Of a DNA stretch of 64,000 nt, positions 16,499-55,455 are shown piece by piece. The notes beneath the pieces are model-generated. The model was not told where the DNA came from. It searched no databases and saw nothing but the letters and a program-made list of their open reading frames with translations. Every line of letters starts with the position of its first letter. Position 1 is the stretch's first letter. Origin of the DNA: Octopus vulgaris (Eukaryota); contig OX597815.1 in assembly GCA_951406725.2 (NCBI GenBank), forward strand, positions 97,278,001 through 97,342,000, given 5' to 3'. The translations under genes were made by a program, and so were the position numbers.

Positions 16499-17575
16499 AA
16501 CTTAGATATGTTTCGACCAGAGATTGGTCCAGGCCATGTCTAACTTAATAGCACCACCTGATAGGATTATTCGAATCCTGTTTAAGTCAAGTTTTGTTCA
16601 AGTAGTGAGTTCTAGTTGGGTGAGTTGTATCCAGTTTTGTTCAAGTAGTTAGTTCTTGTAGGGTGAGTTGTATCCAATTATGGGTGGCTTATCTGGTATT
16701 CTTCGAAGGAATCTATCCAGACTCTGTTTGAAGTTGATGGGATCCTTTTCCTCTTTGATCTCCCTCGGGACAATGTTAAATAGGGCAGGGCCTGTTGAGG
16801 AAAAGAAATTATGTTGCAGTGAACATGTATGTTGTGATCTTGAATTTGGCAGGGGACGTATAGCCCGTGGTCCAAGTCTTGGATGAACCTTGAAGCTAAT
16901 GTTTAGGTCGTTTGGGCAAAGTTGGCGGTATATTTTCCACATCGTACAAATGATGTACCGCTCACGGCGACGCTGGAGGGAGTAAAGTTTCAAGGCTTTA
17001 AGGCGATCCCAATAATCGAGAGCAGCCATGCCTTCAATTTGTTTAGTGAGAGCCCTCTGGGGTGACTCAATTCTGGAGATGTTTTGTCTTGTGTGAGGAG
17101 ACCACAGTGGGCAGCAGTATTCAAGGTGTGGCCGTACAAGGGAGGAAAAAAGTGGTATGATGACACCTTGTTCTCTGCACCGGAAAGTTCTTAAGATCCA
17201 GGAACTCATCCTACGAGCTATATCGACCTTCTTGTTGATGTGTGCACTCCAACTGAGATCGTCATCAACAATTACACCCATGTCTCTGATATTGTTGGAG
17301 GCTGTGAGCGGTTCCCCTGAAGGAAGAGAGTATGGTTGTTTTAGTGAGGAATTTCTTCCAAAATGCATCGGCTCAAATTTTCCCTCATTCAGTTGCATTT
17401 TGTTTCTGTCTGCCCATTGACTTACATCATATAGATCAGACTGGAGTTGAGTTCGGTCTGCTTCTTCATTGACGATTTGCTGGAGCTTAGTGTCATCAGC
17501 GAATATTTTCACTTTGCAGTGATGTACGACACTGGAAAGGTCGTTTACGTAAATTATGAAGAGTAGCGGACCCAA

Positions 17576-17578
<3 letters not shown>
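16499..17578 (-). mobile_element. 5'-truncated CR1-group LINE (RT C-terminal half plus 3'UTR) inserted in (TA)n
   Basis: ORF 16649-17575: LGPLLFIIYVND..FADDTK, RPHLEYCCPLWSP, LYSLQRRRER; 3' stem-loop at 16515-16529; (TA)n on both flanks. Confidence 0.9.
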
Positions 17579-17630
<52 letters not shown>

Positions 17631-18140
17631 GTTTAATATTTGTTGTGCAAGATTTTTTTATGTGAAGTCGTGTGTTGAAACAGATATTGTTATATTTCGG
17701 AATGGTCATATTGCCAGTTTAGCCAATAAAAACACACGCACTATATATTTGGTGTTATTTTGCTTCAGTGATATTTATTTTTTACATTAATCTTAATCTT
17801 ATTTCGGCCAAAGTTCTTTCGTCACACTCCTGTGACCGCATCAGTGGTCCTTTGTTTTCTTCTCACTTACTTGTGTCTCTCCTTACTAACCGTCAGCCAT
17901 TTTGTATTTCTATTGTATGTCTTCATTTGCGCATGCTTATATCTCTATGTGCGTCTATGTTTATTTAGTGTGTGTGTGGGGGGGATGCCTGTAATATTTG
18001 TATCTTCTGGTTATATACATTCTTGTAATTTGTATTTTGTTTTTGTTGTTGTTGCTTTTGTTCTAATTTTGTTCATGTGTTTACATCCACCCATTATCAT
18101 CATTACATATGCTTGTATGTATGTATAACAACAATATTAT

Positions 18141-18344
18141 ACATATAAAAGCTCATCGATTCTGTACCAACACGCCGAACAAGAACACGGGGGATCAATC
18201 AATAACATAGAGATTAAGATATTGTCCACACATAGAACAGATGCAACAATTAGACAAATTACAGAAGCTACACATATAATAGAAAATAAACCTAGCCTGA
18301 ATAGAAAACTAGAATGGAGCAATAGCGCACACCACAACATATGA
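18141..18344 (+). pseudogene. PLE GIY-YIG endonuclease C-terminal fragment
   Basis: Manual translation: TYKSSSILYQHAEQEHGGSINNIEIKILSTHRTDATIRQITEATHIIENKPSLNRKLEWSNSAHHNI*. The HxxxxH, R..E...I and P.LN..EW pattern is typical of PLE endonuclease ends. It has no start codon, so it is absent from the ORF track. Confidence 0.75.
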
Positions 18345-18855
18345 CAATAGTGGATCCTGCAAACATAATAAATACACAGGTAATTAAAGAAATAGAAATG
18401 AATATCTATATATATGTATATGTGTATATATATGTATATGTATATGTGTATATATGTGTGTATATATGTATATATATATATATGTATATGTATGTGTATG
18501 TATATATATATGTGTATATGTATATTCTTTTTTTTTTTTTTCGATTAGATTTATTATTATTATTACTAATATTGTTGTTATACATACATACAAGCATATG
18601 TAATGATGATAATGGGTGGATGTAAACACATGAACAAAATTAGAACAAAAGCAACAACAACAAAAACAAAATACAAATTACAAGAATGTATATAACCAGA
18701 AGATACAAATATTACAGGCATCCCCCCCACACACACACTAAATAAACATAGACGCACATAGAGATATAAGCATGCGCAAATGAAGACATACAATAGAAAT
18801 ACAAAATGGCTGACGGTTAGTAAGGAGAGACACAAGTAAGTGAGAAGAAAACAAA

Positions 18856-18900
18856 GGACCACTGATGCGGTCACAGGAGTGTGACGAAAGAACTTTGGCC
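18856..18900 (+). ncRNA. Non-canonical minimal hammerhead-like motif (mirror copy at 17806-17850, -)
   Basis: GGACCA-CTGATGC-G-GTCAC(aggagt)GTGAC-GAAA-GAACT-T-TGGCC; stems I and II pair, but A9 is replaced by C. Confidence 0.55.
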
Positions 18901-19020
18901 GAAATAAGATTAAGATTAATGTAAAAAATAAATATCACTGAAGCAAAATAACACCAAATATATAGTGCGTGTGTTTTTATTGGCTAAACTGGCAATATGA
19001 CCATTCCGAAATATAACAAT

Positions 19021-19052
<32 letters not shown>

Positions 19053-19761
19053 GTATGTATTTATGTATGTATGAATATATGTATGCCTGTGTCTGTGGAG
19101 AGAGAGAGGTAGATAGAAAGGAGAAAGAAATAAGTGTGTGTTGTTGCTGCTGTTGTGTTGTTGCTGCTGCACTTACTCTTCCTGCTGTTACAGCTAACAG
19201 GCGGTTACTTCTGCTGTCCTCTGAAACCCAGTTACTTTTAGAAGTAAATGAAATACACCACTGCGAGTTCTTAATCAGACCTCACATTATAAAATATTAA
19301 ATCGTTTTAATGTATTTAAATTTATTTTCCCTTTTATTTTATAACAAAGTTATCATCCTAAACCGACCGAAAACAGTAGTTACTTAATTAAAAACGTAAC
19401 TACTGTCTTGTCCTCTCCATGATAAAGTTGCCAAATTATTTTGTCCATTTTTTATTCTATTTCTACTTCTTTCAGTCTTTAGATTGCGGCCGTGCTACAG
19501 CCGTGCCTTAAGGAATATTTAGTCGTACGAATCTACCAAAGTACTAATTATTTAAGCTTAGTACTTTCTCTATCATTCTCTTAGGCCACACCGCTAGGTT
19601 ACGTAAAGATAAACACATCAACGCCGGTTATCGAGCGGTTATTGCAGGACAACCATGAGCACACACACACTCATATATATTTATATATATGTATGTGTGT
19701 GTGTGTGTATGTGTGTGTGTGCGTAAATATTTGTATATTTATATACACACACACACGTATA

Positions 19762-19981
19762 TACGAGAGGATGCTGAAAAGATCTTGGCTGTAAATATAT
19801 TACGAAAGACGTGGCTGGAAGTCAACTTTCCGGGTTCATTTATAGGGCTTACAAAAACTGAAGGATCGCTGCAATAAGTGTGTGAATCTGAGAGGAGAAT
19901 ATGTTAAATATAATCATAATTGACTTATCCACCTATATTTTCTGTTATCCAAAGCCAGGAACTTTTCAGCACTCCATCGTA
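19762..19981 (+). mobile_element. Mariner MITE
   Basis: TA-flanked TIRs cgagaggatgctgaaaagatcttggct and agccaggaacttttcagcactccatcg; internal GLQKLKDRCNKCVNLRGEYVK* resembles the mariner transposase C-terminus. Confidence 0.85.
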
Positions 19982-22399
19982 TATACGCTCATATAGGAAG
20001 CGTATTAAATAGATTCACCAATTACAATATAACACTTACTATTGCAGTGTTCCGGCATGTGAATTGAAGGCAATTAAATACTTATTTGTGGCACATTTAA
20101 TAATTCTGCAGCTGCTCCCTCAATGGATAATATGATTTCAGTTGTCGCAATAATGTAGTTACTAGCCGTAGGAAATAACATATTGGTGTTTCTTATAACT
20201 TATATCTTGCGGGATTATTTAAGGCTTTAAAGCAAGCATCGTATTTTATTACAATGCAATTTATTTGGACGAGTTCTCTCATTTGTTAGATAGCCTCTTA
20301 AGTTATTTTCAAACATTAATACTTTTTCTCGGCTGTTTTCTTGTTAGTAGTGATATTAGGTATCATTGTCCATCTTGATCGAGCTGACCTTTGATAAAGA
20401 GCATTGAGCAAGGAGCATGATCTCTTTTTTCCTTATTTGCTGAAAACCCCATGACGTTTCCTCTTTATTTCCGTGTCCTTTCATATGACGGTATGAGGAA
20501 ATCCGATATCTTCTAAGTTTAATACTTCCGGTGATCACGTGGAAGATGGCTCGCTGGCTTGTTGAACGGGTTTCTCCCTCTCTTCAGATCGATTTTCCTT
20601 TTTGTGATAGGGGCTTTGTTGATCTTCAGAAAATTAGTGCAAATTACCATGAACTGCATTTTCTTCATCGGTTACACTCTCGAAATCCCAAAATGCATTT
20701 TAATTATAACTATAGTATACATAAATATTAAGCATTTCTCTATAATAAGAATCAAGCAGTTTCATGTTAAATTGCTTTCCATATCCAGTTATAAAGTTAT
20801 AATGCTCTGTACTGTATATTAAAACCTGAAGCTGTCCGCGTTATAGTTGCCATGCCTGCCACAGAAGATCTGTAGAACTCTTGTGATATTTAATTTATGT
20901 TACTTTCGTTTGTTAGATATATCTTCGGAAAAATCTTCGACCTCGATCAAGTAATACAACAATAGACAAGATTAATTTGGTAATTGTTATTTAATTTAAC
21001 ATCTGTAATACAGTAGGGACATAAGTGATACTTATTGCTCGTTTAAAGAAGAGATGATACATAATTTAAGGTTACTGCTATCATATAGTGTGAAATGAGT
21101 AGTGGTCAAGTGACAGCGGCACAGCAATATAACAACACATCGGTGTGCTATCTTGGTTTTCTCACGTACTTCTTTGACAGATATCTGTTATAACTTGGTA
21201 TGCACATGTCAGTGTGTGTTACTTCAAATTACGACGATGCTTCACACGTTCGCGCGCACGTGTATGTTAGTGCGCGCGCGCACGTGTGTGTGTGTAATAA
21301 GATGTAATCACAACTACATGAACTGGGACTTTGCCCTAATGTATGACACCTCAGGAATGTGTCTTCTATTATGTTTGTGAGTGAGTTCGGTAGAAGGAAA
21401 CTCGAATCAGCATGCGTGTCTATGTGTATCTATATATATCTATATGAGTTTCTCTTTGTGTCTGTTTGTCCTTCACTTTAAGAGGTAAGCTCGTTTCTTA
21501 AAATCTTCTTAATTTAGCAGTTAATCAAGAGACCGATATAATATGTACCAGAATTTAGAAATAAGTGCTGCAATAGATTTGCTCGAATAACGTATTCAAG
21601 GCTGTTACTAGCAATGTCACAGTTCAATAGCTGAAACAAGTAAAAAATATATATAAGAATACACACATACACACGCACATAAGCACGCAAACACATATAC
21701 ACATACAAATAGATATTTAAAAATATATATTTCATTTTAGAGATATACATATATACAAATATGTCATATTTGCTTCTATATGTTTCTAAATTATGCACGT
21801 TTCATCCCATATAACTGGAGCTTTCTTTTTATAACATGTGATTTGAAAGATCTATCTATATATATATATATATATATATATCATTTTATATCAAGACGTG
21901 CAAATTTAAATATTAAACAAACCAAAAGGTAAATATTTTTTTCTTCCATAATATTTGACACCACGTACTAAGATTTGGCAGATATAAATTTCAAATGAAT
22001 TATATTAGTGACATATATCTCAGAGAGGTACTGCAGAATGTGGATGAGCGTCATTCAATGACTTAAAAACAGTTGTTGCATACGTCTGTACAAGATCACA
22101 CGAAATGTCTGCTGAAGACATTTATGCAAAGTAATGCTGACTGGAATAGTAACTTGTATCCAAATCGAGATTAGCCTTCCCCAAGCAAGTGAGGATTTTG
22201 CTATGACTTTTTTGTCTGCCCCCATTTTAAACGTAGGTACATTTATCATTATCCGTAAGAAACCAAAATATAATATTTACTTTATCAAGCTTAACAACAG
22301 CCAACTCTTTCTCAGATAGAATCTACCCCTACCATGTATACACTCTATGTTTCTTTTTATCAAGAATATTGCACAGCATGTTCTGCAGTGTAGCCTGTC

Positions 22400-22700
22400 A
22401 TCTCTAATATGAGCAGCAGTTACAACACTCAATCGATAGTTGCTATAAGTAACTATTTATGAACTCCAACAAGTGGAAGTGTATGTCTACAACACAAAAA
22501 TCCTCCTGGTACAAGACAAAAGAATTATGTTACAAGTAGCAAGCTTTCTGAGCATATCATCAATACTCTCCAAACTGCAATTCTGCAGGATGCTGCCCAC
22601 CTTCGAATATGCTAACAGTTATCCAGATGGCAGTCGTCAGTTCACCATATAGTGTATGTTAATGATATTGCCCGTCATCCGAGATTTAGTTTTGTAATTC
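22400..22700 (-). pseudogene. Decayed RTE-like LINE remnant
   Basis: Minus-strand fragments ILQNCSLESIDDMLRK and DDGQYH*HTLYGELTT resemble RTE/BovB C-terminal motifs; boundaries are uncertain. Confidence 0.4.
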
Positions 22701-23679
22701 TCGCCAAACTACTCATGTTCCTCTCCAGAATCCGTAACACTAAAACACTGTAACGGTAAAGCATTCTGTGTAAGAATGTATCCCTAGGTTTTCGAATCCA
22801 CTATCATAATTGTTTGTGGAAGAAATGTTTCCATTCCACGCTTTATTCTCAACTTACCATATATGTCATTTCATTGCAAGAGCCTTCAGTTTCAAATATT
22901 ATGGACATCCTATTAGGTTTAGGAAAGCGAAGTGATGTGTCCATGTTTTTCTTGGGTCAGATACATGTTGCATGCTCATACCTTTCTACAAAGCAGGCCA
23001 TTCTGGAGCGGGAAACCAAAATAACTATTTTGTCTCCATCACAGGCTCTGTTTATTAAAACATATTTATATTAGCGTTTATCTTGATTTATAAATTTACA
23101 ATTTAGAACTAAAAAAAATATAAAAGAAAACGAAAGCAATTCCACAATTAAATAATTAGAATTTTCAATAAACACAAAATCAAAATCATCTAACAAGTGC
23201 AAGCTAGAAAAATTCAACTTAAGACATTTATCTAGATTAAAATAAAAATATTTTTTTAAGTATAATTACATACAAAAAGCACTGCATAAAATAATGCTAT
23301 AAATTATATCGTTTACATTCTTAAAAATACTGCTCTACATATTCTTTGTCATTTGTACATAGCTGCATGCACACATATACACTGACGTACACACGCACAA
23401 ACACACATACACACATACGTGCACATGTATATTTACATAGATAGATGTATAGATATAAATATATATGTATGAATCAGTATATATACATATGTGTGTGTGT
23501 TTGCATATACATGTACGTACATATGTATGTTTGTACATATATTTATATATATATATATTTATATATGTATGCATGCTTGTATGTATGCATGAGTATAATC
23601 ATATATAAACACAGTGTATACATATATATTTGTATGCATATTCATACATATACATGTATACAATGTATATAGATATATA

Positions 23680-24445
23680 TCTCTATATATAAAACTGAAA
23701 TGCGTTTTTACCGCTTGGATCGCTTTCAATGCCACTACATCCCGTGGGCTACCTATCTTAAATCCCTATCTTAAAAGGTGTGGTTGCTAGGGGCCATCTT
23801 CCTCACTCACGCTATTTCCTCCATTCCCCTCTAACTCCCCTTCATATCTAACTTTGACAATTCCACTCCCGTTATTTAATGTATCTGTCTTCCTCAACTC
23901 ACTCTCGCTATTTCCTCTCTTCCCAGCACATTTTCACTCACTCTATTGCTTACCTTCCCATAACATTCACTTATGTATCTGTCTGCATTCATAGAGAGAA
24001 ACAAATATTCCATCGCCATCGCCATCGCATTCTATTGTCTACCTGTCAATGCGCCGATCGTCCAAATACAAACAGAACACACCAAAACACTTTGATCTTC
24101 CAGAGCGTTCGTGTTCTGGTGATAACATAGTTTTTTCGTATCTATTACATTTTAACATTTATTTAGAACCCTGCAAATTTTTCGTGCTAAATTTTCATTT
24201 TTTACTACTTTATTATTTTTTCTTAAATTGATGCTTTTATTAAAATTGATTCTTATTGTCTGGGTCAACAGTTCGTTTTCTCGGAGGATATGGAAATTCT
24301 TATTACCCGTCAGAGAAATAACTCCAGCAGCTCACAACTATTTCAACAAAGACAAGGTTACCTGCTTACCAGTCGAATTCAGCGTCAACGCTCACGTATG
24401 AGAGAGACTCCAACACACATACACACACACACACAGACACACACA

Positions 24446-24476
<31 letters not shown>

Positions 24477-25298
24477 GTAATGTGTGCATTATGTGGTCGG
24501 TTGAGCTGAAAATATGCACACCTATATTAAAAATGCTGGCAAGTTTGCATGACAACTATTTTTTTCCTCAAATGAAAGGCGTGACCTCTAGGACAAAATT
24601 CCTCATCTTATAAAATGTGGCCCCAGTAGACCCGTCGTTAAGAAATGCCAGCCATGGTGACTCTACTATCCTCAAATTCTATCCCTTCAAACTTTGGTTT
24701 CCAATATTTTATTATTTTTATTCAGCTCGCAAGTTTGTCTGTCCCTTTTAAATGTTAGTGTTTTGCTGTCTGCCATGAAGCAGACCTTTCCGTTGGTACT
24801 GCCTGATATTTATGATTGATCTTTCTAAATATTTTATTTCTCAACTTACTCAAGATCATTTGTTGTTTATAAATGGGAGAGAGATAGATAAAGATAGAGA
24901 GTAAGAGAAAGCGAGGGAGAATCCGAGAGAAAGGAAGAGTAACAGAGTGGGAAAGTGAGAGAGAAAGGAGGGAGAATCATCATCATCATCATTATCATCA
25001 TAGTTGAACGTCCGTTTTCCGTGCTAGCACGGGCTGGACAGTTTGACCGGGGTCTGGGAAGCCAGGAGGCTGCACCAGGCTCCAGTCTGATCTGGCAGTG
25101 TTTCTACAGGTGGATGCCCTTCCTAACGCCAACCACTCTGTGAGCGTAGTGGGTGCTTTTTACGTGCCACCAGCACAGAAGCCAGTCAAGGCGGCGTGCA
25201 ATCCACCACGTTCGGGCGCTTTGTACGTGCTGAAAGGAAGCAACAGAAAGTAACAACCACACTCTTTCCCGCGCGTAGAGCGGGCCACCTTCAGCTAG
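23680..25298 (+). mobile_element. Probable non-autonomous Helitron with nested repeats
   Basis: 5' A|TCTCTATATATAAAA; 3' hairpin CCCGC-gcgtaga-GCGGG (25268-25284) followed by CTAG|T; internal QRQRSRMRETP resembles the ETP repeats at Helitron N-termini. Confidence 0.55.
24977..25200 (-). mobile_element. SINE/LINE-tail family C with (ATG)n tail
   Basis: caccaggctccagtctgatctggcagtgtttctacaggtggatgcccttcctaacgccaaccactc is shared with 48948-49130. Confidence 0.8.
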
Positions 25299-25398
25299 TA
25301 TATATATATATATATATATACATATAAATATATGTATATATATTCTCATACATACGTAAATACATACACATACACACACATACATATATATATATATA

Positions 25399-25467
<69 letters not shown>

Positions 25468-28400
25468 CACTCACAGACATATATACGTACGTACATAGAC
25501 ACGCAAGCATACTTACATAAATACATATATACATAACAAATCCAATATAATGCAGGATATATTTTCTTTTTAAATAACTATTTAATTCAATTCTCCCAAA
25601 ATAAAAAAAGAAGAAAAAATTATTTTGCAGCGGATTACTTACTTTGTAAACAGCAAAGTAAATCATATATCAATGTGTTGAGACGGATCAATGTAAACAA
25701 CTTGAAACTTAACACTTTGTAATTTCTGATACACATCGATTATTATAAGATGAAATATATTTAAACTCATGCAGTGATAGAAGCGTTTATATCGGCATTT
25801 ATACAAACATGGATGTACATAGAGACAGAATGTTCATATTATTTACAATTAAATCATATATACACACATATTTACGCGTGTGAGCGTGTATGTGTATAAT
25901 TGTTTGGTACTAGTCGAATAATTTCAAAAGACGTTCAAACACATAAATAATTTTTTTTTTCTCAGCACTTCCTGTTATGTTCTGTTTGAAAATGCCGCCT
26001 TCTCCCACTTTGTCTTTCATCTTTCCAGTAAAAAGTTTTAATTTAATTACTTATCACTAGCTTAAATTGTAGTACTTAACTACATATTACTGACTATATC
26101 ACTGAAAGCATTATCAACCCATGCTACAATATATTGAGTGAAATTAACAACATAACCAAGAAGAATGGTTTAGTTTGCATACTTGTACTGTTGTGGAGTT
26201 AATCTTAACTTGTTTATGTATCTATATATTACTTATCGTATTTATGTATATCAAATATATAGATATTCCTATCTTTTGTTTATTATTCTAAAACTTTAAG
26301 AGATATGGAAGATAATCTACACTTTGATGGGAAGTTCTGCTTTCTTTCAATTCAGTCTTCAAATAAAGATTAAAATCTTCAAATGAAGATTAAAATCAAA
26401 ACAACTACTATGGAGTTTAAAGCGATACTGCTTGCTGTAGGTGTAACATATTTCACTTGCTTAGGTTAGATCTAGGTTGAACGTGTGGACAATGTTTTTA
26501 GGCATTAACTATTCTTTTACATGTATATTCACAATGTTGTTAGTAAACAAAAATGCTGGAACGTTATCTACAGGTGACATCACACACTCCTTACTTTTAC
26601 TGTCATATCCTAACACGTCTTTATAGATAACTGTGAAATCACACTTTGAGAACGTTTCAACGCGAATGAATTGAAACGCGAAAATAAGTCTTTGTGTAAA
26701 CTCTTACCATAACCTGAATGAAGCTCGGCGGCAATTTTTTTCAAAGGTAACAAAGAGTACGGGATTGGAAGGAAATGGATTCTGTGAATCGTATCCTTTA
26801 TTCGTTAAAAGTTAACAGGGAGCGAGAAAAAAGGTGATTCGACTTAAGTGCATGAATAACTAACTTTTTTATATATCTATATGGAGGGAAAATGAAGCTG
26901 ATTAACACCATAGAGATTTGATTTCAAATTTGAAAGATGTAGAAGTAATTCATAAAGAATTTGTCCGACACAGTAATGATTCTCCCTTCCTATCAAAAAT
27001 TGCATGTTACAAAAGTGTTCAAGGTAACTTCTTGACTCAGGATCTTCGCTTGATATAACATACGTAAATGACTCAAGATATCTTGGACAGCTCCTACCTA
27101 CAATTTATTTATCTAAAACATGCACAACTAATGTGAGAAGTGAGTGAGAAGACTTTCAATGTCATCTTATTTACTTTCTGAATATTCAATGGCTTCGTCA
27201 GATGAGACACGCCAAGATACACAATACATTTTAGACTAACTATAAAAATATAGAGTAAGGGAAGTAGTTATACACAAAACGGAGATTCAACCCATATACT
27301 TACAACAGAGTTGATTCTCCAAATCGGAACAAACGGAACGGTGGACGAAGTGCCTTTTCAAAGGAATTCACGCATTCAGTATCTCAATTTAGGGTGTTAA
27401 AGTTTATTCTCAATTCAACCATCACTGAACCAACTTACGCCTAGAGACACAGCAGAGACCATTAACATTTCTTTTATATAAATAACAGTTTTAGTTCGTT
27501 CCATGCATACGCTCGCACGTATAATCATTTCTTTGCTAAAAGAAAGCAATGTGAATTATTAATACGATTCACATATAAATGTAAAGTAAAAGTGCGCTGA
27601 GATAAGAGTAAGTAAATTGGGAAGATATTCTTAAACCTCAGATATGGATTGAACAATAGTTAAAAAAGTGTAAATTGAGTGATAAATTCAAAAAAAGGTT
27701 TTAAAACGGTTGAATGATAAGATCTGTGAGGAAAAGGAAAGGCCCGTCGGTTGCCTGCCATTGAAATTCAACCTGGCATATTTTATTACACAAGTTTCAT
27801 TAATATGCAATTACCGAAACAGGAATGCATTCCCAAATGTGTTCATTGTTTGGTGCCAGCGAAGGAATATCAAAGCTGTAAAATATATTAGCTTCATATT
27901 TTAAAAACGGAAGTCGTTCCCAAATGCAAAGCATTGTCGCCGATTCGGATCTGAAATACGCAGAAATTGGACAGAATTTCTTGCTTCATTTACATTATTC
28001 ATGTTCATCCTAAACAATTTCTCCCATTTTCATTTCGAATCTCACACCATTTACATCGCCTTCACTTGCCCTGAGAGTCTGCTTGTATATCAATCTGACA
28101 GCCTGTATGACTATCTTGTCGTCTAACAGTCTATATATACATGTGTGTAAATTTAACTATATATATATATATATATATTTATTTATATATATATATATAT
28201 ATAGTACACACACAAACACTCACACACACATATGTATATTATATACGCACACATAAATATAAACTCATACGTTTACGTGTATATACATGGGTATATACAG
28301 ATATGTGTATATACATTTGAACTTTGACCTGTCATTGATTAATGCATTAAAATCAAAATCATCTGCATGACATCATTCCAAGGACCAATCTAACTCCACA

Positions 28401-29069
28401 AAATCATCATAATAATTGCCAGTTGCATTAACGTTGATGCTAAATAAATACTCTTAACAATTTTTATGTAGATTTTGTTTCAAATTCGCATCAACACAAT
28501 TACTATAAATTAATGGTGTTTCCATATTTGTGGTTTGATGTTTTGTGCTTCTGATTCCCAGCAAAATAAATCGCATCTAATTTTTTTCTTTTAGTGCAAT
28601 TCTTTATTTTTGTTTCTGTAAAGATAGTTTTCATTTTCTGTGAATTGATTTTATGAATTTGTTTTATTTTTTATTGTATGCCATGTTCTAAATTTATTGT
28701 TAACGAACATTCGATGTTGATAATGCTACGTAGCCAAGTATGAGTCATAATTTAAGGATATACATACATTAAGCCCACAAAGCAATGAACACATATATAT
28801 AGATAAACGTACACGCATAAATATGCATATACATGTTTACATATACTCATACATGCATATATACATATCTATAACACATAAATGCAGCCATACATTACAC
28901 ATAATACGTAGGTATATATTTTATATGAACATATATATATATATATATATTCAAAAACTCGCACATAGACACACATACACAAACGCACACACACACACAC
29001 ATATATATATATATCATTTGTGTGCGCAACTTTATATATATATGTGTATATATATATACACATATATAT

Positions 29070-29207
29070 AACTGAACCCAGAACCTTGTTATTAGGAAGC
29101 AAGCTTCTTACCACACAGTTACGCAAGCGTCTATATATATATATAGACGCTTGCGTAACTGTGTGGTAAGAAGCTTGCTTCCTAATAACATGGCTCTGGG
29201 TTCAGTT
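29070..29207. repeat. Loopless palindrome of a SINE family A head centred on (TA)n
   Basis: 69-bp arms with 2 mismatches; centre at 29138/29139. Confidence 0.9.
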
Positions 29208-30413
29208 CTACTGCGTGCCACCTAGTGCAACTCTCTTGAGAGCCACTGCCTGGTAAATCATTATTTTTGCTGCTATCAGTATCACATTACTATTACTATG
29301 CTTATTTTGAACTCACCTTATGTTCCAAAATTGATCTAAGTTTGTTTCCAAAATTATGGCTTCTGCTAGAATGTTATTTCCCGATTATTTCCCGATACTT
29401 CACAATAACTAAACAGTTTTTCTACCATATTTTTCCCTCTTTGCCTTAAATTTAATATGCCTTGTCATATATCTACGTATTTTTTACGCAATATTTTCAA
29501 TATCTCTGAAGATTCCATATCCCGTTATAATAGAATTTATTTCCAAATAAATAATAACGTTCTTGCAAAATCGCGAATGAATGCAATATGATATTTCCAA
29601 ATCTGTATGTTTTATATATAAATAATTTTTCGAAGTACTATGTGGGAGCAAGAAATCGTTTGGATTTCAATGAAACTGCATGTAAACGTAAATAAATATA
29701 CACCTTGAATTCTAAGCATAAAATGGAAATTAAATATCAGCATGATCATCCCAAACAACGAGTTCAATGTATGCGTTTCTCTGAGTATATATGTGCATGT
29801 AAATATAGAAGTTCTTAAACCCAGTTTGTGATTACGTATATGTGTGTATGTATGTGAATGTTGGAATAAAAATTTTGCAATCTGTATCGTAGGTATTACT
29901 CATGTCCATTCCGGAGATGTGACTCTCATGTAGGCATGTAGGTCAGATCTGCATCTGAAAGATAACTACAATGACTATGAAATCTGTTGTACGCTTCTAT
30001 TTCTCAAAACCATATTTTTCTCAAAACCAATGGGTTTATAGATATAACAGAAAATGACATCGAATATCTTGTATTGCTATTCCCACCAGAAGCATAATTG
30101 TATTTGAAAGATGGATTATGAGTACTGGATATTTCTTATGAAGTAATCTTCAAATTGAAACACGGTTTCTTAAATGTATAAAAAGTTCATTAAATTTTCG
30201 AGACCATCTTTATTGAAACAGAGTGTAACCCACAGCCTACGGAAATTTCTCCTGATAGTGATTTTATTTACCATAAGATTTAATACCATGGATTATAAAA
30301 GCACCTTAAAATGAAGTTCTTACCATCCCTTTACTATTTCTATTATATTTATTTCATTTTATTTTATTCTATTATTTTAACTTACATTCCCACATGTTAG
30401 TTTCCCAACATTT

Positions 30414-30550
30414 AGTCTCTCTGATGAAGCCTTGGGGCTCAACCATTGTCCAACCCCAGTCTAATGTGTGTTCATCCCTGTATATCACTGGCGCGATGAG
30501 GATAACTTGGAAGATTTGGTAGCCCCGTAGTAGAAACATCTGTACAGATT
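30414..30550 (+). ncRNA. Hammerhead-like motif with ~105-nt extended stem II, in a probable PLE terminus
   Basis: CTGATGA (30421) ... GGGGCT/AGCCCC, ACCA/TGGT, TCCAA/TTGGA, ATCC/GGAT nested pairings ... GAAACATCTGTA; stems I and III are partly decayed. Confidence 0.5.
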
Positions 30551-30917
30551 TAGTATTTCTACACTCATCTATTCTTATACGTTTATTTTATTTATATATT
30601 TATTTACGTATTTATTGGTTTATTTCATTCGTTTACTTGGATCACTAACAGGTATGATTGTAATCAGTTAAGAAATAGATATAATTGAAAGTTTACAGGT
30701 TGATGTTTGTTGATTATTTATCCTCCCCATTTTCTTATTTGGCTTATACATTCTGGGTAAATTTCTAATTTAGCCCCACTCATACCTAGTATTTAGTTGC
30801 GATATTGTCCTTCAATAGTAAGCTCATGTTTATAAATACGTAGATATAAAACCAGCAGTATATTGGATATTTAATATTTTTTATATGGTTAATTACGCAA
30901 AAAACGGATACACATAC

Positions 30918-30970
<53 letters not shown>

Positions 30971-32400
30971 TGTGTGTGTCTGTGCGTGAGTATATATGTA
31001 TATACATATATATATATATACACACACACACATATATATATATATACATACATACCTATATACATATATACATTCAAATATATATATATATATATATATA
31101 CATACATACATATAATAATAGCAGGCGCTTTGTGTTAGAGGTTTCAACCCTCCTCAGACTGATGATGACGCTGGATGGGAAGTAGAGTCTTCCCGAGTTT
31201 GCTTTCAATCTTTCATTATTATGTGAATTTTGTTTTATTTTACTTCACAGAATAATACATGTGATATACGTGCGTTCGTGTTTCAGCGAGTGTGTTTGTG
31301 TATGTAATTCACTTAGCCTAACACAACTTCTTCCGAAGGAAATTTCATTCTTTCCGATCCAATATTTCAGTAAAAGACCCAGCAGTAAGAGAAGCATTAA
31401 GAAACTATAATATAAGCACTATAATTCAACGCATTTATGTATTTTCCATTGTCCTACTAAGATACATTTTAATCTACTGGTATTTGCAGCATTAGAATGC
31501 CACATGGCAGTATGCCATAACATAAACAATGGACACATGTCATACATTTTCTATCACTCGTTCTTCATATTTTTACTTTTATATACAATTGAGGAATCTA
31601 TGTCTTCTTTATAGAAGAATCATTTGCATCCATTTCAAACAAGCAGAAATCATGACCACATTACAGAATATAATCAGGGTGCAATATAGAAAGCAGATAC
31701 GACTGGAATAACATTGATCTGATGTCTAGTCGATCAGAACTGAAATGGCAGTAAATAGCAACAGTATCAATTCCGTCTAATGTCGCTTTAATTCTTTTAA
31801 TGCTTTCCAATAATAATGTAACAATATTGTTTCCAGGATAGATACACAGAAATTTCTGTTTCAGACAGATCGGATAAATAACATATGTCACATAGTCATT
31901 AATTATTATTAATAAATAACATTTTTGAAAAGGAATTCATACATTATTCATATCAGTGGTAACTTATTCTGCATGTTATATACCTTCATGTATTGTATTC
32001 CTGCGTGTTATTGTTTAGTGTCATGTCAAAACTGATCAATGAAATTCCTGCAGCAATGGCCATGAACTTTTTATTGTTATCTGTCACATGTAATCTTCTC
32101 TTTACTAACACTGGAATGTATGATTTGAATAGGATTGAACCGCTATTTCTAACAGATTCAATGACATTGTAGAAGAGATATTATTCACATAGTAACATGA
32201 CTTATGCATTTCACACACACACTCACACAAAAGACCTCTATCACACACACGCATACACAAAAACAATCAGACACACAAACACACATGGATACACACGCAC
32301 GAATATGATGCTGGTCAACAAACTGTTCGGAAGGAAAATGAGAAGTAAAGAAATAACTGTTACTATTCGTAATAGTCAGTTTGTAAAATACGTTTAATAT

Positions 32401-32682
32401 CTATCCTTTGTCTATTACTTGTTTCATTCAGTGGACTGTGACCATGCTAGGGCACTTCCCTGAAGGGTTTAATCGAATAAATCGACCAGAGTATTTATTT
32501 TCCTTTTGAGAATCGCAGGACTTGTATAAGTTCTTTTTGCCGAACCGCTAATATAACGCAGCCATAAGCAACCCAACGCCGTTTGTCAAGCGGTGGTGGG
32601 GAAAAACACAGATAGACAGATAAATATATAGATAGATATCTATATAGATTCACACACATATGTATGCATGTATGTATGTATG

Positions 32683-32739
<57 letters not shown>

Positions 32740-32880
32740 CGGACTTATTTCTGTTTCCGCCTACCAAATCCATTCGGCCTGGGGCTGTAGTAGAAGATAC
32801 CTAAAGTGTCACACATTGAAACTAAACACGGAAACATGGGTTTGTAATGAAGCTTCTTACTTCACAGTCACGCCTGCGCC
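32401..32880 (-). mobile_element. SINE family A with expanded internal microsatellite
   Basis: Ends in cacagtcacgcctgcgcc (reverse complement of the head); tail and central motifs as in the 1576 copy. Confidence 0.8.
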
Positions 32881-33357
32881 TATATACAGAAAACCTCCAG
32901 GAAAATGCTTTGTCGAACGATCATGTGACGTAGCAAGAATTATTGAGGATCGATGTTGGCTTCAACCGTACACAGAGATGTGAACACAAAGTATGCAAGA
33001 TTTACAGACCGCTAGGCCTTACGCCAGCCAATCGAATAGTAACTGAATTACTTGACGATACAGCAGAGTTAGAGGAAATAAAAAAGTGAGCTAGATGAAA
33101 GGAAAGAGAGTGAAACGAAGAGTGAAGATGTAGCAGAAATGAAAATACAAAAAGAAAACAATAGAAACTAAGCTTATGCATGTATTCTATACAGTGGAGA
33201 AAATATTTAGAAATGTTTACGAAAAGACATTAAGAGATTAACTCGTATTTTCAGAATCAGAAAGCCAGGTCACGCCTTCAGTCATTTTCTGTCAAAAAGT
33301 AACGAACAGACATAACTAACAGACTTTCTTCGATCATAACTATCAGATCAAAAAATC

Positions 33358-33550
33358 TTTTCTACTCTAAGCACAAGGCCCGAAATTTTGGGGATTAGAT
33401 CGGACCTAGTACGCAACTGGTAATTAGTTTATCGACCACAAAAGGATGAAAGGCAAAGTCGGCGGAATTTGAACTGAGACCATATAGACAGACGAAATAA
33501 AGCTAAGCATTTCGCCAAGCGTGCTAACGTTACTGCCATCTCGCCGCCTT
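33358..33550 (-). mobile_element. SINE family B
   Basis: Minus-strand head ggcggcgagatggcagtaacgttagcacgc..; core gttcaaattccgcc..gactttgcctttcatcc; also at 38.5, 39.3 and 62.1 kb. Confidence 0.85.
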
Positions 33551-33786
33551 TATCACATCAAAGAATGCGGCCAAAATGCCTGAGCACTAAAATTGTTCAC
33601 ATTTTTGAAATTTCATTTTAGCAGTCTGTACTTCTCAGTCTTTTCTAATTCTTTTTCACTTATCTCCAAGTATTGCAATATCTATAATTTTGGTTTCATT
33701 TTTTCCTTTATCTTCCACAAATATATTTGGTTTGTTGAGCAACGATTAGGGAGTCACAGTGAATTGTAAAATCCCACAGTATCTAA

Positions 33787-33881
<95 letters not shown>

Positions 33882-33882
<1 letters not shown>

Positions 33883-35965
33883 TATGTTTGACTTTTGCAT
33901 TATGTCTGTACAAGTTGGCTCCAAGTCTCACCCAGAGACCTCAAGAGACAACAGGTTGGAAGTCCACGTTGTTGTTATGCCTAGTGTGCCATATATTTGG
34001 GGGGGGGGGTGTACTAATGAATGTCTAATACATAAGTTTTAAAAAAATATTTGTTTTAAACCTTGGGATTACATAGAGAGTATTTTGCGTAGGATATGAG
34101 CAGTTCCCATGAGCACTATCTTTTGAATTTCTGCGATTTTGGGGTTTCCTGGTATCTGAGTTAGGTAGCAATCAGCCGCTTTCGCTATCATTCCCCGGGC
34201 ACCTATGACAACATGTATTGTTTTAGTTATCAGGTTCCACATTTTGCTGATTTCTATTTCAAGATCTTTATATTTGCTCAGTTTTTGGTAAGTCTTGACA
34301 GATACGTTTATATCGATTGGGACAGTCATATCAACGAGGAAGCATGTTCTTTGTCTGAAGTCTTTCAATATGATGTCTGGCCTATTTGCATCTATTTTTC
34401 TGTCAGTTTGGATGGTGAAGTTCCAGAGGAGCGAGATGTGGTCATTTCCAAGCACTGGAGGTGGATTGTGTTCCCACCAGATGTTTTCATGGGGCAAATC
34501 CAGGTTTTTGCAAATTACCCAGTGAATATAATGTGCAGCTCTATCATGCCTGTTGAGGTACTCTGTAGGCGCTAGAAGATTGCATTTGGAGACAACATGA
34601 TCAATGGTCTTATTTTGTTGTCGGCCTACACGACATGTTGGGCTACTGCCGTTCTTTAATATGTTGATCTTGAGCTGCTATGATAAACCCTTCTGTTTCA
34701 GATTTTACGCCAGAGGCCATTAGCCATTGATGGGTCAGGGCTTTGTCAATATCTGCATTATTCGCTCTCTTTGGGTATTTGCCATAGAGAGGTTTTTCTT
34801 GCCATTTATTATTCAGAATATCTAAGGCCTCAGTTTTGGCACGGGTTTTCATGCGCCTAGCTTTTTCTGTGCTTGTTTCTAGTATGTCTATCTCTAATTC
34901 CGAAATTGGTTGTATTCGGAATTCACTTAGATATTCCTTTGCCTGTTTTGTTACTGAGTATGATGCTTTCTTGTTTTCATGTTTTGAGACAAGTTTTAAC
35001 ATCCAGTCCTCAGACTTTTTCAGGTAGGTCTCTAGGCCAATTGTAGCAATCTTCATTGTTATTGCCAGTTGCAAAAGACCACGGCCTCCCTCTTTTCTTG
35101 GCAGATAAAGTCGTTCTGTATCTGCCTTAGGGTGGTGCATTCTATGCATTGTCAAAAGTTTTCTTATTTTTCTGTCGAGCTGACATATTTCAGTAATTGA
35201 CCAGTTAACGATATTGAAACTGTAAGTCACGACTGGTATGGCTAAGGCATTGATCGCTTCGATCCTGTTTCTTGCATTCAGCTCTGTCTTGAGTATTGCT
35301 CTCACTCTTCGATAGTATTCTCTCCTGATCCTTTCCTTCATCTCTGAATGCCTTATTCCGTTCCCTTCAATTACCCCTAGGTACATGTAGCTCTCCGCTG
35401 GGTCTAGTTCTTTTATGATATTCTGCTCATCAAGGTTAACGTTAGATGTTTCTGTCACTTTTCCTTTGATAAAGGTAGCTTTTGCACATTTATCGAGGCC
35501 GAATTGCATTCTGATGTCGTCACTGAATTGTTTGACTATCGCTAGTTAGCCCTTGAGTTGTTGGTAATTTTTTGCAAAAAGCTTTAAATCATCCATGTAA
35601 ATGAGATGATTTATAATTTTATCAAACATTTTATACCCGCACTGCGCGGGTGGTAGGTTATCAAAAGCCATTTTATAGTCTATCCAGGCTATTGATAAGT
35701 TTTTGTGTCGTTTGTGACAATCTTCTAAGATCATCTTATTGATGAGTAGTTGATCTTTACAGCCGTAGGAATCCACGTTTACATCCTTTCTGTTCATTAG
35801 GGAATATGCTGCTGTCTGTTAAAAAACTATAAGTATATTCCGTCAGGACAGATGTTAGCGTTTTCTACATAGTTGTTAAGCAGGTTATGGGTCTATAGTT
35901 TTTGGTTCATTTGTTTCTTCACTCTTTGGAAGCAGGAATGTTAACCCATTAACTAGCCAAGGAGG

Positions 35966-35966
<1 letters not shown>
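33882..35966 (-). mobile_element. 5'-truncated, disrupted R4/Dong-like non-LTR retrotransposon (RT plus restriction-like endonuclease)
   Basis: [45 protein letters not shown]; zinc knuckle CRVGR..TIDHVVSKC; RHD; NRPDI..D; flanked by (TTA)n at 33790-33881 and 35967-36015. Confidence 0.9.
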
Positions 35967-36015
<49 letters not shown>

Positions 36016-36016
<1 letters not shown>

Positions 36017-36425
36017 TGAGTGAGAGAGCAGGGCATGCCATCAAAGTGACACTGGGTAAAATATACGTAGCCCAGTATACCCATCATGTCTACCTGCCTG
36101 ATAAGGTTACACTGGGCACATGCATTACAACCATATGTGTAAGACATGCTGATCTCATATCAAGATAAACAGCGCATGACCTTGCAGGTGGGGGCCCTGT
36201 TAGAATTTTCTTCTTGTCGAATACCCCACCCCGCTCAAAAGGTCCCTGAATAAGGATTGTTTAAGGATGTTTTCAAAGGTGAATTATCCAAACCACCAAG
36301 AATTCCTTTCAACACACGGCTATGAGGCTCCCCCGCTACTTCTGTTCGTGTTCAGAGATGCACATATCGTCAGCCACTAAGGGACATTGTCAACTGGTTA
36401 AGGTCAAACAACTGGCAAGCAATCC
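36016..36425 (-). mobile_element. Interspersed repeat (SINE-like) ending in the (TAA)n tract
   Basis: GC-richer block directly abutting the (tta)n run; no ORF; family not identified. Confidence 0.45.
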
Positions 36426-37453
36426 GTCAATAAATTCTGCATACATCCCAATATTTTGTGAATTCCTTTTGAAGAAACTAAATTAGTGTATTTCTGAAAA
36501 TATGAATGACAAATATAAAATCGTGATAAAGTTTATACTTTCTCTATTGTCAATAGAGATAAATTGTTAAGGACACCAAAGTAGGAGCACGTTAACGTGT
36601 ACTGGTTGGACAGTTGCAGAAGAATACGAGACCATAATATAGAAATTATGCATGTGAAGAATAGTTTTCTTCCTATTGGCCTCTAAACAGGATCTGAACT
36701 GAATAGATTTTAAGAAACAGAATATGAATATGACATTGATGTTATTGCACATAAGAAGGTAGATCATAGCGAGAAATACAGATAAGGAAATGGAATTCTT
36801 CAAAGACACAGATTGTCTACTTTACGGAAAGAAATGTAGAATAGACTTGTTTGTGATACAATCTAAAAGGGAGAATGGGGAAATAATCAAAATTGCAGAA
36901 ACATTTGAATTGCAATGAAATAGTTGTATTAAGGGACATGCAGAGCTTATAGTGTTTCAGGCTGATTAAAACGAAATATAAAGAAATGAAAGACCACATA
37001 GAAAAATGGACACACAATGCGGAAATCCCTACGTGGTATATTTAAATATTAGAGTCCGCAGGAGTTAGTGGGATCTGCGCTGACTAATATTAATGCAAAG
37101 GCATCAAAGGAAAGCATACATTTCATAACATTTCATTCAATAAATCTAAAGTTCATTGTATGCTGTTCAAAGTAGCAGCTATATTTCATCAAATCCAAAT
37201 TGCATATGGCAACTATAAGTATTCATTATTTATGATACTATATAGGATTAAAAATAATATCTTAGATGATAAAGTTTTTCAATCAGTTTACTTAAAGCTA
37301 AACAACAAAATCAGTGTATAGAAACAAAGTGAGAAGTTAATGTTCAAATGCTATATTAATGCAACAAGGAGAATATACGCAATAGCTACAGTCCTTGTGT
37401 ATATAGTGTGACGCAGTTTAAACGTGATTTAACGTATCCTACTTCCAGGAGTC

Positions 37454-37717
37454 GTGGAAGCGTGTGGATTAGTGGTCCAGGTGTCAAAACCATGATGTAC
37501 GATTCTGGTTTCGATTCCTGGACCGAGTGACGCGTTGTGTTTTTGAACAAAACACTTCATTTCATGTTGCTCCAGTCCACTCAGCTGGCAAAATTGAGTA
37601 ACACTCCGATGGACTGGTGTCCCATCCAGCTGGGGAACACCTACGCCATAAAAACCGGGAAACCGGGCCCATGAGCCTGGCTAGGTTTGAAAAGGGCGTT
37701 TGTTATTTTATTATTTT
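37454..37717 (+). mobile_element. tRNA-derived SINE, family D, with 8-bp TSD
   Basis: A-box-like tggattagtgg, B-box ggtttcgattcc, central gctccagtccactcagctg, T-rich tail; CAGGAGTC duplicated at 37446-37453 and 37718-37725. Confidence 0.85.
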
Positions 37718-38479
37718 CAGGAGTCAAGTGCGGAATATCACGAACGTGTACGAAATGTGATACCTGAAGATAGTTACTGTTTACGGTCTATAAATACTAG
37801 CAGCCATGTCTTGTTAAGTTTAGCTCGATCTTCTTAAATGTAAGCAACAAACAGTATATAATCTGACACTAGTTATACTTGAAAATGAAAATAAAACTAG
37901 TGGAAATTGATTTCAGAGAAGCTGAACAAACAATACAACAAAGCTTATACGATAAACGAATAAATATGGGCTGATATACTATTAATGTACGCCCACAGTT
38001 TTCTCTTCTTACTACTTCCCTAATTTTCTTGTTAGAGACACAAACAAATAACGGTAACTTTCAGTAGTTGTCATGCAAAAAAGGAGAAAATTTCAAAATA
38101 TTAGGAATATATTTCACAAAATTAAGTCCATTCACTTACAAGAAAATTAACCTTCGATTGTCATCGTGTGTCGTTGTTCGGATTATGCAAATGTTACGAT
38201 CTGAGGGCAAGTTGATCAAAACCTACTGTAGGAATTTTCTATATGAAGATAAATGTAATCATCTGAGAAATTATATCCTTATTTCTTTATATGATACCCA
38301 TTTTATTAATTTACTTTTGATATGAAAAATAGTTTTGTCGAGTGCGATATCTTATTGTTTAGTAAACAGAATCAAGTAGTTCTGCAATTGATAATTTTTC
38401 ATCCCAATTATCTTATAAACCCACTTCTTAATGAGCTTATAACAAATGTTCTATCGTATTTGCTTGCCAGAATGCATTC

Positions 38480-38677
38480 AGCTGTCAAAATCTTTAGTAT
38501 GCCGGGCAAAACCCTTGGCCGTATTTCATGTGTCTTTATGTTCCGAGTTCAAATTCCGCCTAGGTCGACTCTACCTTTCATCACTTGGGGGTTAATAAAA
38601 TAAATATCAGTTAAGTACTGGGACCGATGTAATCGGCTTACACTTAAGCCGCAATTGCTGTCTTTATGCCAAAATGT
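38480..38677 (+). mobile_element. SINE family B
   Basis: agctgtcaaaatctttagtatgccggg..gagttcaaattccgcctaggtcgactctacctttca. Confidence 0.8.
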
Positions 38678-38733
38678 GTTGTCAGCCTAATACGAGATGA
38701 TTCTATACTTATTAGATTAATTATCAGATTTAT

Positions 38734-39061
38734 ACTGTTATGTCTGGGGAGAGTCATTTTGTTTTTGTGCCTTATAATGTAACACACTCACCGGTAAAAT
38801 TTCCACTATTTTCTTATTTTTATTTTCCTAAAATTTTCGTTGCAACTTGCAACCTTTTCAATATTCAAAACTATTGAAAATGTTGCAAGACGCAACGAAA
38901 ATTTTAGGAAAATAAAAATAAGAAAAGAAGTGGAAATTTTATCGGTAAGTGTGTTACATTATAAGGCACAAAAAGAAAATGACTCTCCCCAGACATAACA
39001 GAATATGCTTCAACACACGAACTCATACAAAGAATTTTGCAAGCCAAATCCAAAAACGAAA
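38734..39061 (+). mobile_element. Short PLE-type insertion: inverted pLTR hairpin plus tail, 12-bp TSD
   Basis: Arms 38735-38863 and 38872-39001; TATCAGATTTAT at 38722-38733 and 39062-39073; hammerhead-like motif 38871-38907; ATG at 38979 starts MTLPRHNRICFNTRTHTKNFASQIQKR. Confidence 0.75.
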
Positions 39062-39342
39062 TATCAGATTTATTCTATGCGTATATTAGTATTTCTCAAA
39101 ATTGCTCAATTCTAAATGTAGTGAAAGATATAAATTATATGCACTGTAAAATAAACGTATTTTAAAACTATTATACTTATTTTGACATTCCCGTATATTT
39201 TAGTGAAGATATATTATGAACGTTGATTTCTACTACAAAATATAACTTCCACATGAAAGAATATGTTTTAATTGAAATATTGCAAAAAGGTTGAAGCTTT
39301 TGTTGGTCTCTTTCTTTAAAGATTTTAAATGAATTTATATAT

Positions 39343-44889: not shown

Positions 44890-46732
44890 GCATGTGTAAT
44901 GGGCCCCCAACTATGCGAACCGGGTCGTATTCTCTCAATCCACTGGCCCCACTCCCGAAATATACGGTCGTTATATCGGTGTCTGTATTGGCATGACCTC
45001 ACACTCACGCGAAGTAGACTCCTTTCTGTCTTTCGTATTCTCCCGCATTATCTCTAACTCTACCGTCGAATTTCTCGACATTTCTGTCAAAATACACCAC
45101 TCCGCTCTCACTACCTCCATCCACTATAAACACACTGACTCACACTCCTACCTTGACTTCTCCTCCTTACACCATACCGATACCAAGCTATCAATCCCTT
45201 GCTCCCAATTCCTCCGTCTGTGCAGGCTCTGAAGTGGCAATCATGAGTTTGAAACTAAGTCTCAACTCATGGCACGCCACTTCATCCTACGTGGATATCC
45301 CTCCTGCCCTTGCCAGGGCACGATCTGAGGAACATGCTTCCGCTCTTTCTCCTTGCACCGCCCCGCCGTGGCCCGTTTCTCGTTTTCCCTCACTTATAAC
45401 ACTCTTACTCCCTGCCCCTCAAACGCACTATTCTCTGAGATCCCGGATACTCCAGTCCGACGCCTCCACCTCCTACATCTTCCCCAATAAATCCCTTCCC
45501 TCTTTCAAACGAGCCCATAGCCTGTGTGAACTTCTGGTCCATATTTTCTTCCCTAACGCCACCTGCCAGCCTAGCTCATTCCCCTGCTCACACCCACGCT
45601 TTCACACCTACCCCTACCTCTCCAACACCACCATCGTCACAGGCATCCATCATTGTCCCTATCTCATCACCGACAACTTTACTTGCACTTCTAGTAACGT
45701 CATTTACTGCATCTCTTGCTCTCTCACTCTTACTCTCTCTCCTTCCCTGTACATCGGTCAAACGGGACGCTGCTTGACCGACCAATTACTGGTGCCCCTC
45801 CGAGACATCAAACTCTGCAATGATACCATTTCCGCTCTACGGGTCATTCGCTACGACATTTGTCTGTGTTCGGAGAGGCGATCCAGACACCCGCCTTCGC
45901 CGTGAACATTAATTAATCTTCTCTCTTCGATTCTTTGTGCTGAATGGGCTCAATTCACCTCCTCTCTGCATCTTCTCTCTTCATTTGACGTCAACCTCAT
46001 CTTCTCGCTTCATTTTATACCAATCTCACACCATTCCACACATATTGGCACTTAGCACTTACCAGCACCAACAAGAAACACCATCATTCGCACACTCACA
46101 CACAATATTCAATAGCGTCACCACTATATGAGCAGCCACAAACCCTATTTAACTCAGTACACACGCCACATATTATCATGCACACTCCCACACGTAACAT
46201 ACATAAGCAATGATAACTTTCGACCACCATACACGTGCACATTGTTTGGTCACAGACATACAGACGCGCACACACACACACATATACACACGCATGTGCA
46301 CACACCACGTAAAAAAGCAAACAATACACACACGTTACACAAGTACACACTCATACGCGTCAGAGTCACTCGCCCCAATTCACATGCACACAAATACACT
46401 CACACACACACACTGTTCCCATATACGCTCACACCACGTGAAACTTCTCTGGTTGCGATCACTAGCACTTTATTTACTCCCCGTGATTGAAACTATTTTT
46501 TTATTATCTCCGTTTTTTTTAGTCTCTTTTTTCCATTCATTCGCCATACTGGACCGCTGAAATCTAAAAGATTTTTTTTCACTCTCCCTCTCTGGTTATA
46601 TTCTCATATTCATTTCTGTTGAAGAGTGATGGCTTGAAACGTAAAAGATTTTTCTTTTTGCCCGAGCGTCAAACTAATACACTTGCTCGTTGTTCATACA
46701 CCTGTCTTCCTCTTTTGTTTTGCTATAAATTT
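44890..46732 (+). mobile_element. Degenerate Penelope-like retroelement (RT C-half, GIY-YIG, 3' pLTR)
   Basis: MGP.NYAN remnant, YGRYIGVCIG (decayed YIDD), VEFLDISV, HYKHTDSHSYLDFSS.H, KLSIPCSQFLRLCRL, FTCTSSNVIYCISCS..LYIGQTGRCL; hammerhead-like TTGAAGAG..GCTTGAAACGTA-AAAGA at about 46614-46650. Confidence 0.9.
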
Positions 46733-55254: not shown

Positions 55255-55455
55255 ACACACACTCGTATAAATTCATATGTAGATAGAAATGAAATCAAAA
55301 TACGTTAGGATAACCAATATACAAAGATGATAAAACAATACATTACCTAGATCTTGTACCTCTATGATTATGACCACCTTCCAATTCTACGTACTCTCCA
55401 TTAATCTACTTAACTGGTTCAAGTTTGAAGGTCGCCTTGAGCTACTCATTGATAC

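Follow-up and report, generated by a model that had tools for sequence, protein, structure and literature searches.

Minimal hammerhead motifs in two sister Penelope-like families of Octopus vulgaris, one with a recent A9C core change

Two fold-back loci and their parent elements

A 64,000-nucleotide stretch of the Octopus vulgaris genome (assembly GCA_951406725.2, contig OX597815.1, positions 97,278,001 to 97,342,000; hereafter the window) contains two loci with hammerhead ribozyme motifs. Both are fold-back fragments of the pseudo-long terminal repeats (pLTRs) of two sister Neptune-type Penelope-like element (PLE) families with thousands of copies, and each consists of a 5'-truncated copy joined to an inverted pLTR arm. 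The families are additional examples of a published type of PLE hammerhead, and their sole oddity is the replacement of A by C at core position 9 (A9C) in the youngest subfamily of family 1.

At locus 1 the inverted pLTR arm (17628..18139, minus strand) is 98.6% identical to the full element L061 described below and ends at the long 3' end, with its tail, beside (TA)n. It contains a mirror of the family-1 hammerhead with C9 and U17 (17806..17850, minus), identical to the plus-strand copy, and the first codons of the family-1 open reading frame (ORF; 17629..17709, minus), which were located by tblastn with the L061 protein, P0001, and are frameshifted here after about codon 18. The last 65 codons of a GIY-YIG endonuclease occupy 18147..18341 on the plus strand and are 100% identical to P0001 residues 1245-1309, so that locus 1 combines a copy truncated at its 5' end with an inverted pLTR arm, set in (TA)n. 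The 3' untranslated region and pLTR of this copy follow (18342..19022, plus; 96.5% to L061) and finish in (TA)n at the short 3' end identified from the 3'-end histogram. The minimal type I hammerhead (18856..18901, plus; read directly from the sequence) has a 3 bp stem I, C at position 9 (18868), an extra G (18869), a 5 bp stem II and a self-complementary stem-III remnant, with the predicted cut after 18895. The ORF start codon and first codons, also read directly, lie at 18997..19022 (plus). The arms 17684-18139 and 18567-19022 form a 456-nt inverted repeat of 100% identity.

Locus 2 forms a fold-back, in the left arm of which (38731..38864, minus) a second copy of the motif occupies 38828-38864. 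Its right arm is a pLTR stub (38862..39062, plus) running from the common 5' point of family 2 to the long 3' end. The hammerhead (38871..38907, plus; read directly) has a U3-A8 core, an extra nucleotide at 38881, a 5 bp stem II and an AAUU palindrome, with the predicted cut after 38904; the family-2 ORF is represented by its first 27 codons (38979..39059, plus), which are 67% identical to the P0001 N-terminus. The apex of the fold-back lies at about 38862, where family-2 copies commonly start. An earlier note, made from the letters alone, had transcribed both motifs and the start peptides running from 17709 leftwards and from 38979 onwards; all were found as transcribed, and the G/U ambiguity that it entered at locus 2 derives from the mirror arm of that locus.

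Among ten stretches retrieved from around paired family-1 motifs, one (L061) contains a complete element. Its single 1309-aa ORF (P0001) opens with the start peptide and lies between two direct pLTRs 4.6 kb apart. The motifs DKSG, YVDD and IRC..C..YVGET..H..H were read from the translation and correspond to a reverse transcriptase (RT) followed by a C-terminal GIY-YIG/CCHH endonuclease (EN); the linker has a CX4CX2C motif at about residues 1182-1190. An Asn-rich low-complexity insert at about residues 250-510 (L061:2013-5939, minus) is still in frame. The best named homolog of residues 590-1309 is an O. vulgaris predicted protein (99%), and other relatives bear PF00078 or PF01541. A host gene model, 'dynein regulatory complex subunit 6-like isoform' (P0115), includes a stretch that matches 21% of the RT-EN query at 98% identity, possibly an exonisation or an annotation artefact.

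Family 2 is an older, broken sister of family 1. Its ORF pieces share 44-67% identity with P0001 by segment, and 55-61% in the long RT-EN segments, and are located upstream of the UUGAAAA motif, which bears out the Penelope-like origin and the homology proposed in the earlier note. The pLTR carries the hammerhead 70-100 nt ahead of the ORF start, and the peptide is common to both loci because the pLTRs carry that start. Over the first 27 codons the two families share 74% DNA identity (12 codons identical, 9 synonymous and 6 changed), and the alignment score of the non-coding pLTR parts was matched by 443 of 500 shuffles; the surroundings of the ribozymes, previously called unalignable, are so outside the coding start but not within it. 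Closely related family-2 copies are clustered 15-30 kb apart at G000:C1:206.65-206.85 Mb (L132-L137), probably through segmental duplication.

The 3' ends are discrete in both families. In family 1, 57 of 122 copies end near ATG+25-29 and 48 near ATG+75-89; in family 2 the corresponding counts are 32 of 106 near ATG+25-29 and 48 near ATG+85-89. The two ends are thus about 55-60 nt apart in both families, with the tail between ATG+25 and ATG+85 at the same codon offsets. RT followed by a C-terminal GIY-YIG/CCHH endonuclease, pLTRs that contain the ORF start and occur in tandem and inverted, and two discrete 3' ends identify the families as endonuclease-positive (EN+) PLEs. The insertions are flanked by (TA)n, the target found in the Neptune clade, and the families are assigned to Neptune, tentatively as against Nematis, by this targeting and by the CX2-5CxxC-type linker. 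The EN+ Neptune elements of PMC8557442 share the single ORF with RT, the Zn-finger-like CX2-5CxxC linker and the C-terminal GIY-YIG domain with CCHH, as well as inverted 5'-truncated copies, (TA)n targets and a tail at one end only. They differ in tail length (30-40 bp, against about 55-60 nt here) and from the family-1 ORF in its Asn-rich insert of about 260 aa.

Hammerhead architecture and core history

Both motifs are instances of the known minimal type I hammerhead of PLE pLTRs. The metazoan PLE hammerheads of Cervera and De la Pena (2014; PMC4209133) have an extra nucleotide after position 9 and before position 10.1, a short helix I and a palindromic helix-III remnant, with the consensus CUGANGAH-G...C-GAAAN-palindrome-NUH. 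About 1,300 U3-A8 motifs are given there for Schistosoma, and the alignment includes a UUGAAAA row (Schistosoma mansoni) with an NUU site and many further NUU rows; natural U3-A8 covariation is also described in PMC3088659. The octopus motifs share with this type the type I form, the short stem I, G10.1-C11.1, NUH sites including NUU, the location in pLTRs, the inverted pairs, the extra nucleotide and the palindromic stem-III remnant, and family 2 also shares the U3-A8 core. The proposal of an atypical, lineage-specific architecture was accordingly abandoned, since each of its elements, namely the additional nucleotide, a minimal stem III, an NUU site and the U3-A8 pair, is already published for metazoan PLEs (PMC4209133). 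Three details differ from that set: the extra nucleotide is G here and H in the consensus (one Nasonia row has G), the stem-III remnant is 4-6 nt here, and family 1 has C9 where the alignment rows examined all have A9. As summarized in a review, the small PLE hammerhead variants of Lunse, Weinberg and Breaker likewise cleave as dimers and have a palindromic stem III that is short. According to the review PMC3705267, a viroid hammerhead is slowed when it has an extra G here, which adds to the low activity expected of the octopus motifs.

Among 11 natural copies taken from all lineages, stem I has at least 3 bp in 10 and stem II has 5 bp in 10, and the stem-III remnant self-pairs in all 11 (4-6 pairs in a dimer), which was taken as a dimer signature. 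An ordinary or compensated core (CUGANGA or UUGANAA with GAAA) occurs in family 2, in old family-1 copies and in a sister family; the young family-1 copies, including locus 1, lack the canonical A9. This adenine is generally described as the invariant partner of G12 in the hammerhead core. The truly non-canonical letter is the C at 18868, which the earlier note had transcribed without flagging it. An A9C subfamily was not found in the literature searched, which left out the main paper on PLE hammerhead variants.

Copies were gathered by pattern search; a DNA search with the family-1 pLTR, in which common words were skipped, returned nothing. The exact core pattern of family 1 had 3,387 matches in the 2.8-Gb genome and that of family 2 had 3,807, with none for the reversed-pattern control in either case, so the loci are not due to chance. 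The youngest core, C9/U17, had 1,390 exact matches and is also that of the intact element. Rfam returned only microRNA and snoRNA noise, with no hammerhead among the 150 matches listed of 154; CUGANGA-only descriptors and Rfam overlook most copies of these families, as had been anticipated. Covariation was judged by comparing lineages, since counts within a family would be circular, its copies being almost identical and having been retrieved through their core patterns.

With the family-1 flanks held constant, position 9 was not C in 566 matches (86 A, 13 T and 1 G among the first 100 listed, counted by eye). A looser pattern picked up a sister family, in which the core reads CUGAAGA-G and stem II is unchanged; it had 1,056 matches and 4 in controls. 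140 copies were collected and the 120 reaching the start codon were aligned, the two arms of one insertion being counted separately. Mean pairwise distance falls from 0.228 in the sister family (n=24) through 0.104 in A9/C17 (n=25) and 0.043 in C9/C17 (n=29) to 0.020 in C9/U17 (n=29). In a tree calculated with columns 9 and 17 removed, in which bootstrap support had not settled, A9 copies are basal and U17 is nested in C9, which is nested in A9; the 29 C9/U17 copies group with two others, 31 in all, with support (100/92). Each of the two letters marks a younger wave than the last, C9 first and U17 next. The older subfamilies and the sister family do have CUGANGA, the outcome that the earlier note had equated with decay, but C9 is a subfamily trait and not the decay of single copies.

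Copies found through an anchor downstream of the motif gave a similar composition: of the first 100, 72 have the motif (64 C9, 5 A9 and 3 T9), although an exact anchor favours young copies. In contigs from sequencing runs labelled organisms C and D, A9 accounts for 16% and 13% and C17 for 91% and 93% of summed depth, a measure that does not give copy number. Since C9 is the majority letter in these runs and C17 is common there, C9 predates U17 and occurs beyond this assembly. A contig from the organism E run is identical to the young family-1 form. C9 combined with the older loop had 35 matches, and the 24 that were read have mixed old and young flanks, fitting recombination, stepwise change or recurrence. 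Folding energy is identical for C9 and A9. Further older sister lineages (L191, L194, L195 and L201) have canonical cores and different stem-III remnants, and two of them have U as the extra nucleotide.

For family 2, a C3-G8 pattern had 68 matches against 18 in controls, about 19 of them with the family-2 stem II (counted by eye), and family-2 flanks were present in seven of the eight matches read. The C3-G8 copies otherwise have the same motif as the U3-A8 copies and are more diverse (0.204, n=5, against 0.131, n=84, for a U3-A8 sample biased toward the window copy), so that the 3-8 switch is a real compensatory change in two steps. The older relatives retain C3-G8, and with it an ordinary CUGANGA core, in agreement with the switch from C-G to U-A posited earlier. 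The extra nucleotide at locus 2 is U, against a family-2 majority of G (80%), and stem I of its mirror also departs from the majority.

Copy ends, motif constraint and neighbouring sequence

The 5' ends of family-2 copies were scored in 69 of the first 70 of 3,398 downstream-anchor matches, a few of which are segmental duplicates. Starts 4-14 nt before U3, about 10 nt upstream of the core, were found in 23 of 69 copies against 4.1 expected, and transcription of family 2 likely begins just upstream of the motif. Near the predicted cut site there was no excess (4 of 69 against 2.6 expected, p=0.27). In family 1, 62 of 100 anchored copies were scored, the other 38 having the whole core; three have their start between +30 and +38, and no peak is present. 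A 5'-end peak at +98 in the sister family was dropped because an A-rich stretch of the reference produces it artificially. With no accumulation of copy 5' ends at the cut site, the inserted copies appear to have been made from RNA left uncut, in the family with the compensated core too. Such ends need not mean an inactive motif, because cut RNA that is never inserted leaves no trace.

A close parallel is the Poseidon element PAc of Anolis (PMC11167929), in which hammerhead mutants insert normally in vitro, uncut RNA is the main template, reverse transcription has two starts and the hammerhead cuts only with protein. It resembles the octopus families in its two discrete 3' ends, the lack of reads or copy ends at the predicted cut site and the uncut RNA template. 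It belongs to a different clade, its core is canonical and its ORF starts inside the hammerhead, whereas here the ORF starts 70-100 nt after it.

Between the sister family and old family 1, none of 13 core and none of eight inner stem II positions differ, compared with 42 of 109 flank positions (p=2e-4), a contrast that is partly circular in that the patterns fixed the core letters and left only the eight inner stem II positions free in the sister-family pattern. Between old and young family 1, one of 21 motif positions changed and eight of 122 flank positions (p=1.0), in a test with almost no power (about one change expected). The equality with the flank rate is compatible with relaxed constraint and also with selection. 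Constraint on the motif is likely to have been relaxed in the active lineage. The selected fold envisaged in the earlier note is consequently retained for the older branches; on the recent branch the motif changes at the flank rate and C9 has no sign of selection, at low power.

Outside the two loci, a non-long-terminal-repeat retrotransposon RT frame adjoins locus 1 (16649-17632, minus), and more such frames lie at 55334-57508 (plus) and 34069-35545 (minus); together these measure 724, 327, 300 and 202 aa stop-to-stop. A frame at 45018-45905 (plus) with a GIY-YIG-like motif at its end is probably a fragment of another Penelope-like family.

Interpretation and significance

The explanation that we favour, at a probability of about 0.6, is that both loci carry minimal type I hammerheads from the end repeats of two sister PLE families, locus 2 having the published U3-A8 core and locus 1 a recent A9C change that likely weakened cutting and likely spread through the copying of uncut RNA. 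A monomer would be unable to form stem III, and cleavage would need a dimer held by the self-complementary remnant; the protein of the element may assist. Cleavage of this dimeric or protein-assisted kind would have operated in the ancestral cores and be weaker with C9. Reverse transcription would begin at the two sites downstream of the ATG and read through the intact motif, so that a weak core would cost little; C9 is proposed to have spread because uncut RNA is the template.

Several observations weigh against this explanation. C9 is not one clean clade: C9/C17 requires seven label changes, and two C9 rows lie amid old A9 rows and two A9 rows amid C9 rows. The majority of C9 in runs C and D means that it has persisted. 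Stems I and II are intact alongside C9, which also fits tolerance. C17U by itself is not damage, U17 being common both in published PLE hammerheads (PMC4209133) and in family 2. The older-branch test is partly circular and the recent-branch test nearly powerless; no measured A9C cleavage rate was found in the literature searched, and a Pfam scan of P0001 gave no families at E<=0.1.

C9 may instead be tolerated or tuned: the ribozyme would still cut, either at a low rate or in need of the element's protein, and a low rate would be favoured as uncut RNA is the insertion template. We consider this unlikely but a serious competitor. C9 was held through at least two amplification waves and in the runs from other organisms, no change in the stems or in G8/G12 accompanied it, the anole PLE hammerhead needs protein to cut (PMC11167929) and natural core variants are occasionally tolerated (PMC3088659). 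Tolerance sits less easily with G12 having no compensating change, with the recent motif change rate equalling that of the flanks, with 5' ends that have no excess at the cut site and with the failure to demonstrate a second independent origin of C9 among the 35 matches with the older loop (24 read). A role without cutting, in which the fold serves as a promoter or transcription-start sequence or as a binding site for the element's protein and the catalytic letters are free to drift, was judged improbable. It would account for the sharp family-2 starts 4-14 nt before the core, PLE promoters are located in pLTRs (PMC6765202) and non-cleavage functions were left open in PMC4209133. Family 1 has no comparably sharp start near its core, however, and a catalytic fold is signalled both by the compensated change from C3-G8 to U3-A8 and by a stem-III remnant that is self-complementary in all lineages. 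That the window copies are merely decayed insertions of an ordinary hammerhead is hardly credible: the extra U of locus 2 and stem I of its mirror do deviate from the family majority, but C9/U17 is common to 1,390 exact matches and the intact element, and UUGAAAA to 3,807, counts that refute decay of the core letters.

The function of hammerheads in PLEs has been called unclear (PMC8557442). The architecture adds nothing to this question, but the natural cores, as a dated series, do: A9/C17, C9/C17, C9/U17, C3-G8 and U3-A8 each occur in an otherwise near-identical context and offer a ready means of testing whether retrotransposition requires cleavage. The families can be viewed, tentatively and with some doubt, as a natural experiment within one genome, in which one lineage fixed a compensated switch and its sister lost the invariant A9 yet produced the youngest, intact, thousand-copy waves. 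If so, such an experiment would count as in vivo evidence that a clade bearing hammerheads can do without cleavage or is under selection for slow cleavage; if C9 instead cuts with the element's protein, it would be a protein-rescued core variant of a kind not found in the literature searched. Of the octopus subfamilies, the one that is youngest and has been most successful altered a normally fixed core letter and yet spread; this suggests that cutting is likely to be dispensable for jumping.

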